A program made the translations under genes and the position numbers. Below are positions 3,386 to 60,753 of a stretch of 64,000 nt of DNA, in pieces (the stretch's first letter is position 1; every line of letters starts with the position of its first letter). The DNA lies in sequence record PP400787; one strand, written 5' to 3'. The notes below the pieces were generated by a model that worked only from the letters and a program-made list of their open reading frames with translations, searched no databases and was not told the DNA's origin. Source of the DNA: Escherichia phage FL23.

Positions 3386-4354
3386 ATGAAAACTGTAACT
3401 ATCAATAAGGGTATCTACTTCGGTAAAGAAATCTCTGGAACTTTTGAGCTCTTAGGCGAATGGTTCCCAGATAATGCTCCGGTAGATGCACAAGGAGATG
3501 GTAAAGTTTTTGTTGAAATTGACGGTAAACGTCGCGGTGTTTGGGTTTACAAATCAGACATTTCATATGATGGTGTAAAAGTTGAAGAAGTTAAAGAATC
3601 ATATGAAGATATGAAAACCCGCATTAATAAAAGATTTAATGTTATGGGAATGATGACGAATGGTATTATTAACGGAAACATTCGTTCATTAATTATCTCT
3701 GGTGCGGCGGGTATTGGTAAAACGTATTCTTTAGATAAAGCTTTGAATAAAGCAAATGATAATGGATACATTGAGTATAAAAGCATTAATGGTAAAATCT
3801 CTGGTATCGGTCTTTATGAACAGCTTTGGAATAATCGTGAAGAGAATTCTGTCCTTTTGATTGATGATGTGGATGTTTTCTCTGATATGGACATTCTTAA
3901 TCTTCTGAAAGCTGCTCTGGACACTGGAGAGACCCGTAAAGTCTGCTGGAGCACTGCATCTTCTTACTTAGAAGAAAAAGGCATTGAGCGTGAGTTTGAA
4001 TTTAAAGGAACGATTGTTTTTATCACAAACGTTGACATTGACCGCGAATTAGACCGTGGTACTAAACTTGCTCCACATTTACAAGCATTAGTGTCCCGCT
4101 CAGTTTATTTAGATTTGGGTGTTCACACTAATGAAGAAATTATGGTCAGGGTTGAAGATGTTATTCTTTCAACTGACATGATGCAAAAGCGCGGTCTTTC
4201 TGATGAAGAAACTTATAAAGCATTATCATGGATGAAAGTCAATGTTAATCGTTTACGCAATGTTTCACTGCGTACTGCTCTTTATCTTGCTGACTTTATT
4301 ATGACCGACAAAAACCATTGGGAAGAAATCGCTGAAACGGTATTATTAAAATGA
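3386..4354 (+). CDS. AAA+/P-loop ATPase (323 aa)
   Basis: Walker A GAAGIGKT, Walker B VLLIDDVD; ATG 6 nt after GGAG of the conserved leader. Confidence 0.6.
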   Translation: MKTVTINKGIYFGKEISGTFELLGEWFPDNAPVDAQGDGKVFVEIDGKRRGVWVYKSDISYDGVKVEEVKESYEDMKTRINKRFNVMGMMTNGIINGNIRSLIISGAAGIGKTYSLDKALNKANDNGYIEYKSINGKISGIGLYEQLWNNREENSVLLIDDVDVFSDMDILNLLKAALDTGETRKVCWSTASSYLEEKGIEREFEFKGTIVFITNVDIDRELDRGTKLAPHLQALVSRSVYLDLGVHTNEEIMVRVEDVILSTDMMQKRGLSDEETYKALSWMKVNVNRLRNVSLRTALYLADFIMTDKNHWEEIAETVLLK

Positions 4355-5457: not shown

Positions 5458-5515
5458 GTTTACAAGACTGTTCCTCTGTGGTACTATACAACTATCAACT
5501 ACGGAGGAACAGAAA
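5458..5515 (+). repeat. early promoter/leader cassette, variant class (identical to copy at 59148)
   Basis: GTTTACaagactgttcctctgtggTACTATacaactatcaactacGGAGGaacagaaa-ATG; arms ctgttcctc/gaggaacag are inverted repeats. Confidence 0.6.
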
Positions 5516-6043
5516 ATGAACGCTAAAGATATTTTCAACCTGGTAAATTACAACGATGGTAAATTTAAATCTGAAGCACAAAGCAAGTTCTTTAATGACA
5601 TCTCAATCGGAGGTGAAATCACGGTTGATGGAGGACAAATTTACAAATCCCGTTGGAATTGGATCGTTATTATCGATGAGATTGGTATTGTAGAAATTTA
5701 CAAGAATACGAATAAAAATCGTACATTACACTGGTCTCGTGATACTAACGAACAATACAAAAAGGATAAAGCATCTAAATTATCTCGTGTAACTCAAGAA
5801 GATATTGAGTTCATCAAGAAAGATATTTTGATGTATGATAACTTAATTGCTGAAGAGCAAGCTGTTATTGATAAATTTGATGAGATTAAAGCTTCTCGTG
5901 AAATTCCTGATTTTATGAAAGAATCAGTAAATGAACGATACACTCTCATTTCAGAGCGTATCGAAACTTACAAAAAGCAAAGAGCTGAACGCCAAAATAC
6001 TCTTCGGAAGTTTGAAGAACGGTTAAAGACGGTACTCGCATAA
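5516..6043 (+). CDS. hypothetical protein (175 aa)
   Basis: ORF track; ATG directly after cassette SD. Confidence 0.5.
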   Translation: MNAKDIFNLVNYNDGKFKSEAQSKFFNDISIGGEITVDGGQIYKSRWNWIVIIDEIGIVEIYKNTNKNRTLHWSRDTNEQYKKDKASKLSRVTQEDIEFIKKDILMYDNLIAEEQAVIDKFDEIKASREIPDFMKESVNERYTLISERIETYKKQRAERQNTLRKFEERLKTVLA

Positions 6044-50462: not shown

Positions 50463-50558
50463 AGTTTAAATTTTTTCATAAAACTATATACATCAGTAGT
50501 TGATTATGGTACTATATCAATATCAACTACTGATACAGAAAACAACTTGGAGAATAAA

Positions 50559-57823: not shown

Positions 57824-58153
57824 ATGATTTATTGTATGAATATCGGTGATTCCGACATAAAAGAGATTAAACTGCACGGAAATCATCACGCTAATATTGT
57901 GTACTGCAATAAATTTGAGTTTGGTCATGAAAAACTTGGGGTTCTTTATTGCAATGATGTTATAATCATGGATAAAAAGGAACTCGATGAACTCGACCGT
58001 GAGTCTTTAGATGAAAATGACAGAATTTATTATGGTACTCTTAAAGTATATAACGCTTATCTTAGCGGTAAAAAGGAAAGTCTAAATGCAGAAAACGAAT
58101 CCGGGTTTACAGAGACTATTTCAGATTCCGACATTTACCCTATCGAACAATGA
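57824..58153 (+). CDS. hypothetical protein (109 aa)
   Basis: ORF track. Confidence 0.4.
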   Translation: MIYCMNIGDSDIKEIKLHGNHHANIVYCNKFEFGHEKLGVLYCNDVIIMDKKELDELDRESLDENDRIYYGTLKVYNAYLSGKKESLNAENESGFTETISDSDIYPIEQ

Positions 58154-58643
58154 TTTGACTAGTGAAATGAAGGTCAAAATTGCTGATACAGCAAGATACT
58201 CTTTAAAACAAAACCCAAACCAGGATAAAGCAGAAGTCATTGAAAGATGTCGTATCGCTGTGTACGCAGAATTTTTTGTAGCAGATTGGCTGAGCGGGTA
58301 TGTTAACAAAGGCCAAGAGGATGTTAATGACCCATATACATATGCGTGGGATGTATTGGCGCATCCAAGATATTGCGGGCTTCGTGTAGAAGTCAAAACA
58401 CACCAAACTGACTCACGTTGGATTTCTGTAACAACAGGATGCAGCGGAGAGTATCCATACGGTTCTGGAATAAATCTAGGGCCCATTCTGAATCATCAGG
58501 TCGCTGACTGTATAATTATATTCAACACTAAAGAAATTCATCCAGGTGTCATCCAGTACACTCCGAAGTTCATCGGTGATAGAGAAGACCTTCGTAAGGT
58601 TGTAAGAAAAAGCAACTACAACGGATGGTATCTTTCCATTTAA
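58086..58643 (+). CDS. denB: endonuclease IV (DenB)-like
   Basis: 185 aa, same length and position (between rIIB and ndd) as T4 DenB; overlaps previous ORF by 68 nt so start is uncertain. Confidence 0.55.
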   Translation: MQKTNPGLQRLFQIPTFTLSNNDLTSEMKVKIADTARYSLKQNPNQDKAEVIERCRIAVYAEFFVADWLSGYVNKGQEDVNDPYTYAWDVLAHPRYCGLRVEVKTHQTDSRWISVTTGCSGEYPYGSGINLGPILNHQVADCIIIFNTKEIHPGVIQYTPKFIGDREDLRKVVRKSNYNGWYLSI

Positions 58644-58723
58644 AAATTTTCACAAAACGGTTTACATACCACAAGGACTGTGGTACTATACAACTATCAA
58701 CTGATACGGATTTGGAGAACAAA
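58641..58723 (+). repeat. early promoter plus conserved leader cassette, copy 3
   Basis: GTTTACataccacaaggactgtggTACTATacaactatcaactgatacggatttggagaacaaa. Confidence 0.6.
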
Positions 58724-58930
58724 ATGTTTACTACAGCTGAATTAAAACGAGCAAAAGCTAAGAAAGGGCAAGGAAAATATAAAGCTGAATTAGTTAAAGA
58801 ACTTCAGTTTGCTGAGGCTGAATTGAATTCAATGATTATTCAAAATGCTCCAGAAGCTGAAATCGCTCTTAAACGTATTGCGAATAAGTGTCTTCGTGAT
58901 GCAATCGTCGATCTTTTAGCGGATTATTGA
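58724..58930 (+). CDS. hypothetical protein (68 aa)
   Basis: ATG after cassette SD. Confidence 0.45.
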   Translation: MFTTAELKRAKAKKGQGKYKAELVKELQFAEAELNSMIIQNAPEAEIALKRIANKCLRDAIVDLLADY

Positions 58931-59147
58931 GTAAAATGAAAATCGTTGAGATTGAACTATGAGTTCACTATGGTGGTGTTTTGTTTGGTTAATTAGTATT
59001 CCAGTAATTTGTTTAACATTTACTTTTGTAGTGAGGTTATTATGAAAATTTTGAATTCTGTACTTATTGCTTGCGCGTGGTGGGTTGCACAGGTTTCAGC
59101 GGTAGTAGTTGGTATTCACATTTATTACGAATATTTTTAAAAAAGTT

Positions 59148-59205
59148 GTTTACAAGACTGTTCCTCTGTGGTACTATACAACTATCAACTACGGAGGAAC
59201 AGAAA
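59148..59205 (+). repeat. early promoter/leader cassette, variant class (identical to 5458-5515)
   Basis: 58-nt block identical to copy at 5458. Confidence 0.6.
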
Positions 59206-59319
59206 ATGAAAAAGATTGTTAAAGCTATATGGAATGTAGTTATAATATTAGTAGTTTTGAGTATATTCCCAATCGTTTTAATGATTGATGTATTAAACGC
59301 TTACTTTGGATTTATGTGA
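59206..59319 (+). CDS. membrane micro-protein (37 aa)
   Basis: MKKIVKAIWNVVIILVVLSIFPIVLMIDVLNAYFGFM. Confidence 0.4.
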   Translation: MKKIVKAIWNVVIILVVLSIFPIVLMIDVLNAYFGFM

Positions 59320-59326
59320 GGAAAAT

Positions 59327-59524
59327 ATGAAGCGTAAACGCAGTGCTTTTACATTTATTGAATGGTTTTTCGATAATATTTTTCCAGCTTTATTCATTTT
59401 CATGCTGATTTTCGCCTTGGGTTCAGTTGTAGTTGGAATCTATTTGATGGCAGTTGTCGGAATGGACATTCATCAAAATGGCTTAAAATCTGTAGTTGAA
59501 ACAATTTGGAATGGTGTAAAATGA
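59327..59524 (+). CDS. small membrane protein (65 aa)
   Basis: Hydrophobic core FPALFIFMLIFALGSVVVGIYLMAVVG. Confidence 0.4.
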   Translation: MKRKRSAFTFIEWFFDNIFPALFIFMLIFALGSVVVGIYLMAVVGMDIHQNGLKSVVETIWNGVK

Positions 59525-59639
59525 TGAATTTGCTGAGTGGTTGGTTTTATATTCTTATGTTTTACATTGGCGCAAATTTTCCATATTGGATGGGATGGTC
59601 AACAACTGCATTTGGATTTTATACTCCTTGAGGTGAATT

Positions 59640-59855
59640 ATGAAAATCTTTAAAGATGTAAAAGTTGGTGAAATTTTTTGTTTAGATAATGGTGATCAGT
59701 TAATTCGTATTTCGCCCCTTAAAAGCACTAGCGAGAAAATGACAGTTAACGCTACTTTAGCAAATAACAGCAATGAACGTTTCTGTATTGAAAATGATAC
59801 TGAAACTTATACTGTAGAAGAGTTCTGGGAATTAATCGTCGCAGTCGACGATTAA
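59640..59855 (+). CDS. hypothetical protein (71 aa)
   Basis: ORF track. Confidence 0.4.
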   Translation: MKIFKDVKVGEIFCLDNGDQLIRISPLKSTSEKMTVNATLANNSNERFCIENDTETYTVEEFWELIVAVDD

Positions 59856-59915
59856 TTTATCGGCCGTATGTATTCATGCGGCCTTGGAGTAGAAAATAAT
59901 TTAGAGGAAATTAAT

Positions 59916-60374
59916 ATGAAATACATGACTGTTACTGATCTGAATAATGCAGGCGCTACTGTTATTGGTACAATCAAGGGTGGTGAGTGGTTTTTGGGAA
60001 TTCCACATAAAGATATTTTATCTAAACCTGGATTTTACTTTTTGGTGAGTAAATTAGATGGTCGTCCATTTAGTAATCCGTGTGTGTCTGCACGATTTTA
60101 TGTAGGTAATCAGCGTTCTAAGCAAGGATTTAGTGCGGTTCTAAGTCATATTCGTCAACGTCGGTCTCAGCTTGCGCGTACTATTGCAAATAACAATGTT
60201 CCATACACAGTATTTTATCTGCCTGCTTCTAAGATGAAACCTCTGACGACGGGATTTGGAAAAGGACAGTTAGCTTTAGCGTTTACTCGTAATCATCATT
60301 CTGAGTATCAAACACTTGAAGAAATGAACCGTATGTTGGCTGATAACTTTAAATTTGTTTTGCAGGCATATTAA
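59916..60374 (+). CDS. ndd: nucleoid disruption protein Ndd
   Basis: About 152 aa from [18 protein letters not shown]; position and size as T4 Ndd. Confidence 0.7.
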
Positions 60375-60454
60375 TGAGTAATTTCCATAACGAACATGTG
60401 ATGCAGTTCTATCGTAATAATCTTAAAACTAAAGGCGTCTTCGGACGCCAGTGA
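60374..60454 (+). CDS. stp: Stp peptide (activator of host PrrC/EcoprrI anticodon nuclease system)
   Basis: 26-aa [29 protein letters not shown] matches recalled T4 Stp; overlaps ndd stop. Confidence 0.8.
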
Positions 60455-60461
60455 GGAAAAT

Positions 60462-60620
60462 ATGAATATCGCAAAATTATTAGGAGTTATTTCATTTATT
60501 TGTTGGATAGTAGCATGTGTTTTAACTATCTGTATTGATGCCAGCAGCGTGTTTTCACAAGCTTTAGCTCAGGGTATGTGTGCATATTTAACATTTGTGT
60601 TGTTATCTACTAATGATTAA
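60462..60620 (+). CDS. ac: Ac (acridine sensitivity) membrane peptide
   Basis: 52-aa hydrophobic ORF after stp; T4 ac position. Confidence 0.6.
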   Translation: MNIAKLLGVISFICWIVACVLTICIDASSVFSQALAQGMCAYLTFVLLSTND

Positions 60621-60753
60621 GAAAATCTTGGGCTACTCAGTAGCCCTTGCTGCTTTATTGGTAGCACTATATTATGGAGTAATGTTCGGATTAATTCAAG
60701 TCGTGCTTTTCATTTCTGATGTTATTATGGCACTACATTCACTAGTATGGTAA
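60613..60753 (+). CDS. membrane micro-protein (46 aa; 52.1 position)
   Basis: Hydrophobic; coordinates derived by codon arithmetic. Confidence 0.35.
   Translation: MIKKILGYSVALAALLVALYYGVMFGLIQVVLFISDVIMALHSLVW

Follow-up and report, generated by a model that had tools for sequence, protein, structure and literature searches.

Five conserved genes for small hydrophobic peptides, ndd.6 to ndd.2, and their two early-promoter cassettes in the denB-ndd interval of a T4-like phage

The DNA studied here is a stretch of 64,000 nucleotides (the window) with 100% DNA identity to Escherichia phage FL44, a Tequatrovirus, of whose record it is the reverse complement. Between denB and ndd its plus strand holds five micro-ORFs of 28, 32, 37, 65 and 35/36 aa, with stp, ac, 52.1 and 52 following ndd in synteny, and the order from denB to ndd on the early strand is identical in T4, T2, T6, the RB phages and FL44. 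A first-pass annotation made from the letters alone had described at this place a chain of hydrophobic micro-ORFs with overlapping stop and start codons, and on both counts it was right: the five frames all lie between denB and ndd, and three ATGA stop/start overlaps were found, joining an upstream mini-ORF to ndd.6, ndd.6 to ndd.5, and the 65-aa ORF to ndd.2. Every micro-gene start has either a Shine-Dalgarno (SD) sequence or ATGA coupling. We are highly confident that the five are orthologues of T4 ndd.6, ndd.5, ndd.4, ndd.3 and ndd.2 and are real, conserved genes; they have the same position, order and lengths as in T4, share 92-100% amino-acid identity with the T4 peptides, and fall in the same PHROG and Pfam families. 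Being already catalogued in T4, they are no new kind of element, and the new details beyond the catalogued genes are a mini-ORF at the start of ndd.6 and a hairpin over the SD of ndd.4.

Upstream of the hydrophobic cluster, and outside it, lies orf68 (58724..58930; this and all features below are on the plus strand), which encodes a soluble protein of 68 aa (GRAVY -0.25, PHROG 4535) and is found in FL44, T2, RB6, UFV-AREG1 and slur02 and absent from T4, RB59 and EO1. Position 58936, from which the first-pass annotation had counted the cluster, is the ATG of an extra mini-ORF of 8 codons (MKIVEIEL, 58936-58962), whose TGA overlaps the ATG of ndd.6. This mini-ORF is a relic, corresponding to the final 8 codons of an 87-aa ORF that lies upstream in T6-type phages; it is found in 19/19 loci compared, has in T4 the cassette SD directly upstream of it (GGAG-N7-ATG), and is probably a translational-coupling leader for ndd.6. 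The ndd.6 orthologue itself (58959-59045) encodes 28 aa, MSSLWWCFVWLISIPVICLTFTFVVRLL, predicted to be nearly all transmembrane, and its homologues in Mosigvirus and Dhakavirus share with it the motif MSS..W...W...IP.IC. It is overlapped by ndd.5 (59042-59140; 32 aa), which has a GAGG SD and occurs in 490 phage records, in every one at an identity of at least 90%. The ndd.4 orthologue (59206-59319; 37 aa) has a KK..K N-terminus and a predicted single transmembrane segment; it has about 100 distant tblastn matches at 55-61% identity, and homologues were found in Dhakavirus, Marfavirus and an Enterobacter phage. The longest of the five, ndd.3 (59327-59524; 65 aa), consists of a KRKR N-terminus, a long hydrophobic helix of about 28 residues and a conserved C-terminal tail of 20 aa. 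The last, ndd.2, ends at 59631 and begins either at 59521 (36 aa), with an ATG that overlaps the ndd.3 stop, or at 59524 (35 aa); since 6 loci have ATA in place of the first of these codons, it is the second ATG that is conserved as the start. Its motif N-x-P-Y-W-[LM]-G is present in all three cross-genus sequences and is followed by W in two of them. Downstream context in the same transcription unit is provided by ndd.1 (59640..59855), a gene for a soluble protein of 71 aa (PHROG 2183) whose RNA and protein have both been seen early in published T4 data.

Each peptide matches a PHROG family of its own over its whole length: 8851 for ndd.6 (E-value 1e-16), 5011 for ndd.5 (4e-26), 3098 for ndd.4 (3e-21), 2401 for ndd.3 (3e-30) and 4135 for ndd.2 (9e-24). 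In addition ndd.3 matches Pfam PF23906 (DUF7248) scoring 71.9 bits where the cut-off is 27, and a search of NCBIfam gave zero matches. An AlphaFold2 (AF2) model of ndd.3 is all-helical, with only two helices, at 3-17 and 19-64, and a pLDDT of 79. A word-indexed search for relatives of ndd.3 outside the T4-like phages gave 8 clusters, all phage or DUF7248, and phmmer, run exhaustively over 1.84 billion representatives, added only one further relative, of 76 aa, the remaining matches being spurious ones to long hydrophobic proteins. Paralogy among the five peptides, or with ac, 52.1 or other genes of the window, was considered and dropped, no significant similarity being found; ndd.6 to ndd.2 are five unrelated, independently inherited micro-genes in a hyperplastic interval. 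Two other readings of the region were likewise set aside, that of a non-coding RNA or tRNA (the Rfam search gave no family at E<=1 and the tRNA search gave none) and that of a longer gene on the opposite strand, where the cluster holds only ORFs of 34-36 aa.

The first-pass annotation had made its claim depend on the conservation of these frames in relatives, and across 19 Tequatrovirus loci the frames are indeed kept, intact in 18/19 for ndd.6, 19/19 for ndd.5 and for ndd.4, 17/19 for ndd.3 and 16/19 for ndd.2. The pooled pN/pS is 0.15 (50 synonymous and 30 nonsynonymous variants; binomial p = 1.9e-16), with values of 0.12 for ndd.5 and 0.11 for ndd.3, as opposed to values mostly near or above 1 in the off-frames of the cluster. 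Of 592 phage records that match, 491 keep the region at 94-97% identity. Beyond the genus, diverged homologues of ndd.6, ndd.4 and ndd.2 retain discrete motifs (in Mosigvirus, Dhakavirus, Marfavirus and an Enterobacter phage), which persist at the protein level at 45-60% identity. Conservation of the five frames goes far beyond chance, and they are genuine coding genes under purifying selection. This comparative proof for peptides of 28-65 aa justifies experiments on them.

It could still be argued that the frames are non-functional passengers, either hydrophobic ORFs that arose by chance in a T-rich spacer or selfish cargo carried by mobile promoter cassettes. The coding strand is T-rich (AT skew -0.14 to -0.20), which favours codons for Phe, Ile, Leu and Val, and among random short ORFs in the window 16% reach a hydrophobic core of 1.6; knock-downs of the genes are without phenotype, and broken copies occur now and then, in the T4 reference, one T2 record, a51, EO1 and slur02, with ndd.2 damaged in 3/19 loci. 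Against this reading stand the low pN/pS in the annotated frames, the 16-19 intact copies among 19 loci, the survival of motifs across genera and the presence of an SD or of ATGA coupling at every start. On frame conservation and pN/pS we dropped the chance-ORF version, and the passenger reading as a whole, to which we give next to no credence, is on these comparisons largely refuted already.

The first-pass annotation had added that such micro-proteins are systematically missed by annotation, which is too strong for this locus, where ndd.2-ndd.6 are annotated in T4, have PHROG and DUF7248 families and, for four of the five, appear in the FL44 record (which lacks ndd.6 and also stp); what remains of the claim is that annotation is patchy, ndd.6 being annotated in only 4 of 14 GenBank records inspected. 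Transferred names such as 'naphthalene 1,2-dioxygenase' occur in some records, and across hundreds of Tequatrovirus records the annotation of the block is inconsistent and sometimes wrong. Comparison with T4 shows several differences of detail. FL44 has the extra orf68 between the upstream promoter cassette (P1) and the relic mini-ORF. A 1-nt deletion in the T4 reference NC_000866 splits ndd.3 into ndd.3 and ndd.2a, whereas the 65-aa ndd.3 of FL44 is intact and the T4T record annotates the same 198-nt gene under the name ndd.3. Finally, T4 has ndd.4 annotated from a start further upstream, with 42 aa instead of the 37 aa of the conserved frame.

Two cassette promoters had been said to serve the cluster, and both were located, one of them upstream of the interval originally given. 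P1 (58644..58723, near-identical to P2 over 58660-58701) consists of a GTTTACA -35 element, a 17-nt spacer, a TG-extended TACTAT -10 element (9/12 with TG in a promoter scan), a GGAG SD and an ATG, and its GTTTACA lies 15-20 nt past the denB stop in 19/19 loci. P2 (59148..59205, with the near-identical stretch at 59148-59189) is an early-promoter cassette likewise picked up by the promoter scan and has an exact twin of 63 nt at 5458-5520. The motif common to the cassettes, GTTTACA-N14-TGGTACTATACAACTATCAAC, occurs in the window six times exactly and once with 3 mismatches, where 0 are expected, and every copy has T/A runs upstream. At the 3' end the cassettes run into an SD and start codon, as GGAG-N7-ATG at P1 and GGAGG-N8-ATG at P2. 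Four architectures, of about 106, 317, 335 and 553 nt, exist for the interval from denB to ndd.6, and the same cassette opens each of them. These features are those of the PeSL cassettes described from T4-like phages (Arbiol et al. 2010; Comeau et al. 2014), which are repeats of about 85 nt with an AT-rich stretch, a strong sigma-70-type promoter, a stem-loop, an SD and ATG at the 3' end and a hyperplastic location at indel borders between close relatives, further marks of the type being terminator or attenuator activity of the stem and the formation of mini-circles; the ndd.4/ndd.5 locus, compared between T4 and PST, is itself a published example of PeSL-mediated exchange. P1 and P2 are PeSL-type cassettes, with the strong promoter, the AT-rich upstream sequence, the repetition, the SD and ATG and the position at indel borders. 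A stable stem-loop is present at P2, whereas the stem of P1 is only weak, a hairpin of 7 bp in the spacer whose fold is not significant (z = -1.1).

The hairpin of P2 has a stem of 15 bp (59158-59172 pairing with 59188-59202), a folding energy of -23.2 kcal/mol and a z of -4.85, and its 3' arm covers the GGAGG SD of ndd.4. It is kept in 19/19 loci; of five variable stem positions, four stay paired, with C or U facing G, and change at the fifth opens no more than the terminal pair. This variation is wobble-compatible only, with no double compensatory change among the 19 loci, and the conservation could instead reflect the SD and promoter sequences themselves, or the part in recombination or attenuation that has been proposed for PeSLs. 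The -10 element and the transcription start are enclosed by the stem, downstream of which there is no U-tract; given this enclosure and the identity of the 3' arm with the ndd.4 SD, the structure looks like a transcript-specific translational gate and not a terminator, in which it departs from the usual PeSL stem. In T4 gene e (lysozyme), soc and I-TevI, RNA hairpins hide the SD in one transcript and not in the other. The stem at P2 appears to resemble these in pairing the SD with upstream sequence, and an internal promoter would likewise yield a shorter, translatable RNA without the 5' arm; in those genes, however, a late internal promoter goes with an early long RNA, whereas P1 and P2 are both of early type, and we propose that the gate would lie between two early units and not between two time classes. 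We considered whether the cassettes in general hide an SD in a hairpin and dropped the idea, as such a hairpin exists only at P2 and at the twin at 5458. The cassette at 50486 has a different strong hairpin, and folding of the remaining ones is no stronger than that of shuffled sequences.

From these elements a scheme of expression can be proposed. Host sigma-70 RNA polymerase would transcribe the cluster in the first minutes of infection from both P1 and P2. The RNA from P1 would feed orf68 and then the relic mini-ORF, ndd.6 and ndd.5, chained by termination-reinitiation at the ATGA overlaps, which we propose because ndd.6 is without an SD of its own. The RNA from P2 would feed ndd.4, ndd.3, ndd.2 (coupled to ndd.3) and ndd.1. 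Since the P2 transcription start would lie inside the hairpin loop, the conserved hairpin would pair the P2 spacer with the ndd.4 SD, and so bury it, in read-through RNA only, and efficient translation of ndd.4 would therefore be expected from RNA started at P2 and not from P1 read-through. Two proposed devices of the scheme are open to test, the coupling of ndd.6 translation through a relic leader ORF and the limitation of ndd.4 translation to P2 transcripts by a hairpin. In T4 the RNAs of ndd.2-ndd.6 are classed as early and the peptides were not detected by shotgun proteomics, which is expected to miss tiny hydrophobic peptides with few tryptic sites; a literature search for ribosome profiling of T4 infection found no study. 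In a CRISPRi-ART screen of T4 each of ndd.2-ndd.6 was scored 'Not Fit', single knock-downs giving no fitness defect on the laboratory host, and the T4 deletion sa-delta-9 removes the whole ndd block and leaves the phage viable, so that any role of the peptides must be accessory or conditional. A phage transposon-mutagenesis preprint does not cover ndd.2-ndd.6, and a paper on intercalators and abortive infection makes no mention of them.

The single-transmembrane character ascribed to each peptide by the first-pass annotation is borne out for four of them, whose best 19-residue Kyte-Doolittle means are 2.2-3.05, a threshold of 2.0 being reached by only 8.9% of the ATG-ORFs of 25-71 aa in the window; ndd.2 falls short, with a core of 1.17, zero charged residues and 34% aromatic residues. 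On these predictions the peptides are likely to be single-pass proteins of the inner membrane. Each product is predicted to form one helix inserted in the inner membrane of the host; the positive-inside rule predicts N-in/C-out for ndd.5, ndd.4 and ndd.3, ndd.6 would be C-in through its lone C-terminal Arg, and ndd.2 may sit at the membrane interface. In the literature searched no report on localisation or interaction of ndd.2-ndd.6 was found. Databases place the peptides elsewhere, T4 and PHROG product names reading 'outer membrane protein' for ndd.6, ndd.5 and ndd.2 and 'periplasmic protein' for ndd.3/ndd.2a, and one form of this alternative would make ndd.5 a lipoprotein processed at L-I-A-C (residues 8-11), which stands behind an N-terminal Lys and fits the lipobox pattern [LVI][ASTVI][GAS]C. 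The putative signal peptide would, however, have only 10 residues instead of the usual 15 or so or more, which leaves the rest of ndd.5 still a hydrophobic helix, and the positional counterpart of ndd.5 in Mosigvirus is without a lipobox. In ndd.6 and ndd.2 there is no lipobox (Gly, Ala or Ser before Cys) and no apparent cleavable signal peptide, and KRKR followed by the long hydrophobic helix in ndd.3 is characteristic of a membrane anchor that stays uncleaved. The labels were predicted by computation and copied between records, no experiment behind them being found in the literature searched, and we regard it as very unlikely that they are right.

What the peptides do can be approached by way of small membrane proteins of bacteria, such as AcrZ, MgrB, MgtS, CydX and KdpF, which are regulatory proteins of the inner membrane. 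The phage peptides are predicted to resemble them in length (below 50-65 aa), in having one hydrophobic helix (the four high cores, and with less confidence ndd.2) and in their short flanks. The same likeness extends to the neighbouring Ac, a membrane protein of 51 aa encoded about 0.8 kb downstream for which an action on the AcrAB-TolC pump, by binding, has been proposed; the peptides share sequence similarity with neither Ac nor 52.1, nor with one another, and the likeness is one of possible mode of action, not of membership. By this analogy the peptides would most likely bind and tune larger host envelope proteins or lipid synthesis, with a benefit that would show only on particular hosts or under particular conditions. 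That they are conditional modulators of host envelope components is a tentative reading to which we assign somewhat less than an even chance. The explanation that we prefer overall, in which ndd.6-ndd.2 are genes expressed from two cassettes with a hairpin gate, and encode single-pass peptides with a conditional role in the envelope, we consider slightly favoured.

Two more specific roles can be set beside conditional modulation of the envelope. The first-pass annotation had suggested that micro-proteins of this sort often serve host takeover or exclusion, which for ndd.6-ndd.2 would have to be an accessory or conditional role. Just as the neighbouring rIIA/B act against Rex and Stp activates PrrC, the peptides may serve to block systems of abortive infection or exclusion that are membrane-associated and belong to particular hosts or prophages, or may incidentally trip them. 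It would agree with this that the peptides are dispensable on the laboratory K-12 host yet under purifying selection, that each has its own patchy, genus-specific distribution, and that the cluster lies in a hyperplastic region shuffled by way of promoter cassettes, in a locus rich in host-interaction genes; in the literature searched, however, no escape-mutant or host-range data on ndd.2-ndd.6 were found, and such a role overlaps our preferred explanation instead of excluding it. We consider it unlikely. The other role concerns the stimulation of phosphatidylglycerol by the phage, a phenotype known since 1968-69: at least one of the peptides would be an early T4 function that sustains phospholipid synthesis and stimulates phosphatidylglycerol after infection, its target being the lipid-synthesis machinery or bulk membrane properties and not a specific protein partner. 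The effect needs protein made within 5 min of infection, which agrees with the early RNAs of ndd.2-ndd.6, and it is abolished by sa-delta-9, which removes 52.1 through denB, including ndd.1-ndd.6, and lost also in the partly overlapping deletion rII-delta-DD2; a role in lipids is known for none of the deleted genes, several of which are hydrophobic. The deletions also take denB, ndd, ac, stp, 52.1 and ndd.1, however, and the strains tested bore further mutations, and we think a lipid-synthesis effector among the peptides improbable. In its boldest form the idea is that at least one of the five is the long-sought T4 reprogrammer of host phospholipid synthesis, acting directly on a lipid-synthesis enzyme of the inner membrane, and more broadly that each peptide may bind a different host inner-membrane machine; this too is a conjecture with only a small chance of being correct. 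The identification of the five genes nonetheless narrows the candidate list for this unexplained stimulation.

The micro-ORFs between denB and ndd are real, conserved genes and correspond to the already known ndd.2-ndd.6 block of T4, which lies in a hyperplastic region of known type with known promoter-early stem-loop (PeSL) cassettes. Window positions 58600-59900 are 100% identical, as the reverse complement, to Escherichia phage FL44 (PP400790.1, Tequatrovirus), and the locus lies in the classical non-essential T4 region from rIIB to gene 52, in the order denB (58086-58643), a soluble 68-aa ORF (orf68), the micro-ORFs, ndd.1, ndd, stp, ac, 52.1 and gene 52. All the frames listed in the first-pass annotation were found in place on the plus strand: 28 aa at 58959-59045, 32 aa at 59042-59140, 37 aa at 59206-59319, 65 aa at 59327-59524, and 36 or 35 aa from 59521 or 59524 to 59631. 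The T4 reference (NC_000866) has the same order, ndd.6 (28 aa), ndd.5 (32 aa), ndd.4, ndd.3 plus ndd.2a, ndd.2 (36 aa) and ndd.1, and the five proteins match PHROGs 8851 (ndd.6), 5011 (ndd.5), 3098 (ndd.4), 2401 (ndd.3) and 4135 (ndd.2) over their full length, with the 65-aa ndd.3 belonging also to Pfam DUF7248. Position 58936, formerly taken as the start of the cluster, is the ATG of an extra 8-codon ORF, MKIVEIEL.

The overlapping stop and start codons described earlier take the form of ATGA at three junctions. GAGG or GGAGG lies 7-9 nt 5' of the starts of ndd.5, ndd.4, the 65-aa ORF and ndd.1, while ndd.6 and ndd.2, without a good Shine-Dalgarno (SD) sequence, both start on ATGA overlaps. 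The first ATG of ndd.2 is ATA in six of the 19 aligned loci, so that the conserved start is 59524. RegB of T4 cleaves GGAG in early SDs, and the GGAG-containing SDs of the cluster could be targets of this enzyme. The minus strand within the cluster has no ORF longer than 36 aa, and neither an Rfam family nor a tRNA was found in the micro-ORF region.

Conservation of the frames in relatives, proposed earlier as a check, was examined in an alignment of 19 Tequatrovirus loci (14 from GenBank records, 5 from IMG/VR contigs), where ndd.6 is intact in 18, ndd.5 and ndd.4 in all 19, ndd.3 in 17 and ndd.2 in 16. With every distinct single-nucleotide variant scored a single time in its codon column, the five ORFs together hold 50 synonymous variants over 119 sites and 30 nonsynonymous variants over 472 sites, a pooled pN/pS of 0.15 (binomial p = 1.9e-16 against neutrality, 19 loci). 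Read in the other two frames, the same columns contain many stops, and their ratios mostly lie close to 1 or higher, except in ndd.4, where only five variable sites leave the off-frame ratios uninformative. At least 80% of the block is present at ~94-97% DNA identity in 491 of 592 matching phage records. Several losses and rearrangements were also seen: a 12-nt deletion in a51 (locus record L011, 1289-1388) and EO1 (L013) removes the ndd.2 start and first four codons (compare window 59521-59535), the a51 record annotating a 31-aa ORF in another frame instead; ndd.2 is frameshifted in slur02; and gp120 of Shigella phage Sf25 (P0007, 62 aa) joins the first 31 residues of ndd.4 in frame to the last 31 of ndd.3, bearing both PF23906 and PF26889, the latter being an ndd.4 family, missing from the Pfam copy used in our profile search.

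The two cassette promoters said to serve the cluster are present as early-type promoters on the plus strand, P1 (58660-58701) upstream of orf68 and P2 (59148-59189) upstream of ndd.4, each with GTTTACA, a 17-nt spacer and a TG-extended TACTAT. The window holds seven copies of the cassette (six of them exact, zero expected), every copy terminating in an SD and ATG, and the cassette matches the PeSL cassettes of T4-like hyperplastic regions; the ndd.4/ndd.5 locus has itself served as a published example of PeSL-mediated exchange (Comeau et al. 2014). Consistent with such exchange, the interval from denB to ndd.6 has four architectures behind one and the same cassette: ~106 nt in T4, RB59 and EO1; ~317 nt with orf68 in FL44, T2 and RB6; ~335 nt with either an 87-aa ORF or an ORF variant unrelated to it (a51, PM105); and ~553 nt with both. 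Two exact 63-nt direct repeats 53.7 kb apart (5458-5520 and 59148-59210) span the complete P2 cassette, from the promoter through the hairpin to SD and ATG, and in T4 this pairing is seen in a CRISPRi guide for nrdC.8 that has a predicted off-target on ndd.4. A degenerate copy at 50486-50545 (+) has a damaged -35 element (ATATACA) and a different strong hairpin (13 + 5 bp, -20.2 kcal/mol, z = -4.9).

The mini-ORF MKIVEIEL corresponds to the final eight codons of the 87-aa ORF (C-terminus ...EMKIAEIEL) and is kept in 19 of 19 loci. In T4 it follows the cassette SD immediately, with its TGA overlapping the ndd.6 ATG; in FL44 it begins 5 nt past the orf68 stop. Such a relic leader probably hands ribosomes to ndd.6 by termination-reinitiation. 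At P2, a 15-bp hairpin (59158-59172/59188-59202, -23.2 kcal/mol, z = -4.85, with 0 of 200 shuffles folding as well) has its 5' arm in the promoter spacer and its 3' arm over the GGAGG SD of ndd.4. The predicted P2 RNA start (~59184) falls within the loop, and thus the stem can form only in read-through RNA from P1. All 19 loci retain the stem, with a more variable loop; four of the stem's five variable positions still pair (C/U opposite G) and the fifth opens the terminal pair only. Because no double compensatory change occurs among the 19 loci, we can only infer that the hairpin hides the SD; cassettes other than P2 and its twin at 5458 lack such a stem.

Single-TM character had been attributed to every peptide. 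In four the hydrophobic core is strong, the highest 19-residue Kyte-Doolittle means being 2.17-3.05, on a scale where 2.0 is reached by just 8.9% of all short ATG-ORFs in the window; the weaker case is ndd.2 (1.17), which has zero charged residues, 34% aromatic residues and a conserved N-x-P-Y-W-[LM]-G. Charge patterns predict N-in/C-out insertion for ndd.4 (N-terminal KK..K), ndd.3 (N-terminal KRKR) and ndd.5 (K2, acidic C-terminus); in ndd.6 the pattern consists of a C-terminal Arg or Lys alone. The part of ndd.3 most conserved across 59-61%-identical relatives is its C-terminal tail, NGLKSV..T.WNG.K, predicted to be periplasmic, and AlphaFold models the protein as two helices (3-17 and 19-64, pLDDT 79). 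A lipobox-like L-I-A-C follows only 10 residues of ndd.5; the other four have neither a lipobox nor an apparent cleavable signal peptide. The labels 'outer membrane protein' and 'periplasmic protein' in databases look like inherited computational predictions. The hydrophobic island extends 3' of ndd: ac (52 aa) and 52.1 (46 aa, annotated ATG) at 60462-60753 (+) bring the predicted membrane peptides to at least seven within ~1.8 kb.

By tblastn, ndd.6 was found in 640 phage records (147 below 60% identity), ndd.5 in 490 (all at least 90%, no distant matches), ndd.4 in 595 (about 100 distant), ndd.3 in 499 (7 distant) and ndd.2 in 518 (about 31 distant, including Klebsiella phages). Homologues share short motifs: MSS..W...W...IP.IC for ndd.6 in Mosigvirus and Dhakavirus, ..VL.I.P.V..[MF]IDV for ndd.4 in Dhakavirus, Marfavirus and an Enterobacter phage, and N-x-P-Y-W-[LM]-G for ndd.2 in Marfavirus and the same Enterobacter phage, where two of the three sequences have a W next. 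These conserved motifs point to specific contacts more than to bulk hydrophobicity. The possibility that the five are paralogues of each other, or of ac or 52.1, was rejected, as no relationship was found; this, together with their differing phyletic patterns, indicates independent modules and not an obligate complex. Dhakavirus IME08 (L014) carries unannotated homologues of ndd.6 (2387-2476, 29 aa, apparently starting at a TTG that overlaps the stop of the ORF before it) and ndd.4 (2524-2646, 40 aa), and its annotated 'ndd.1' begins at a TTG 14 codons 5' of the conserved MKLFKDV start.

The five peptides are most likely early, single-pass inner-membrane proteins. In T4, transcripts of ndd.2, ndd.2a, ndd.3, ndd.4, ndd.5 and ndd.6 are 'early' with protein not detected (NA), and ndd and ndd.1 are early as both transcript and protein (Wolfram-Schauerte et al. 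2022, Table S2); our literature search found no ribosome-profiling data for T4. Knock-down of each of ndd.2-ndd.6 by CRISPRi-ART was scored 'Not Fit' (Adler et al. 2025), and the genes are therefore dispensable on the laboratory host. As for the suggested part in host takeover or exclusion, published T4 data give no phenotype of ndd.2-ndd.6 in laboratory infections. With the sa-delta-9 deletion, which runs from 52.1 to denB and takes in ndd.1-ndd.6, phage production still reaches ~50% of wild type, and phospholipid synthesis, above all that of phosphatidylglycerol, is no longer stimulated after infection; the partly overlapping rII-delta-DD2 deletion likewise loses this stimulation (Kutter et al. 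2018). That one of the five is the effector of this lipid shift seems to us unlikely. The neighbouring 51-aa membrane protein Ac has been proposed to act on AcrAB-TolC (2025 preprint on Ac). On our best reading, the five peptides would tune host envelope proteins or lipid synthesis, with a benefit limited to certain hosts or conditions.

The expectation that these micro-proteins had escaped annotation does not hold: they are annotated in T4 as ndd.2-ndd.6, and of the five the FL44 record omits only ndd.6. What is new is small, namely the relic leader ORF, the putative SD-hiding hairpin at P2 and some annotation errors. The split of the 65-aa gene in NC_000866 results only from a 1-nt deletion after codon 2, yielding an off-frame 'ndd.3' (26 aa, 3549-3629 of locus record L003), expected therefore to be a singleton in PHROGs, as it is, and 'ndd.2a' (40 aa, internal Met, 3433-3555). 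The intact 198-nt ndd.3 is found in T4T (HM137666, annotated 'ndd.3'), a third T4 assembly, RB59 and almost all relatives. Records of relatives (T6, L010; EO1, L013; and database matches H2, H52, H132 and H148) carry spurious transferred names in this block: 'naphthalene 1,2-dioxygenase' for ndd, ndd.2 or ndd.4, apparently through a clash of gene symbols, and, in the T6 record, 'dNMP kinase' for ndd.3 and 'chaperone for long tail fiber formation' for ndd.2. Stp (26 aa, 60374-60454, +), which in T4 activates the host anticodon nuclease PrrC, is encoded yet unannotated in the FL44 record, which goes from ndd to ac. The ndd.1/ndd spacer holds a 9-bp GC-rich hairpin, GGCCGUAUG/CAUGCGGCC (59862-59883, fragment -16.7 kcal/mol, z = -2.6), and the FL44 ndd (168 aa, 59868-60374) starts at an ATG inside it, whereas the T4 start MKYMTV... 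is at 59916 (152 aa, GAGG SD). In AugustSocin (Bas38; L018, 1681-2106) ndd is annotated in two parts, which suggests that this nucleoid-disruption gene is frameshifted.
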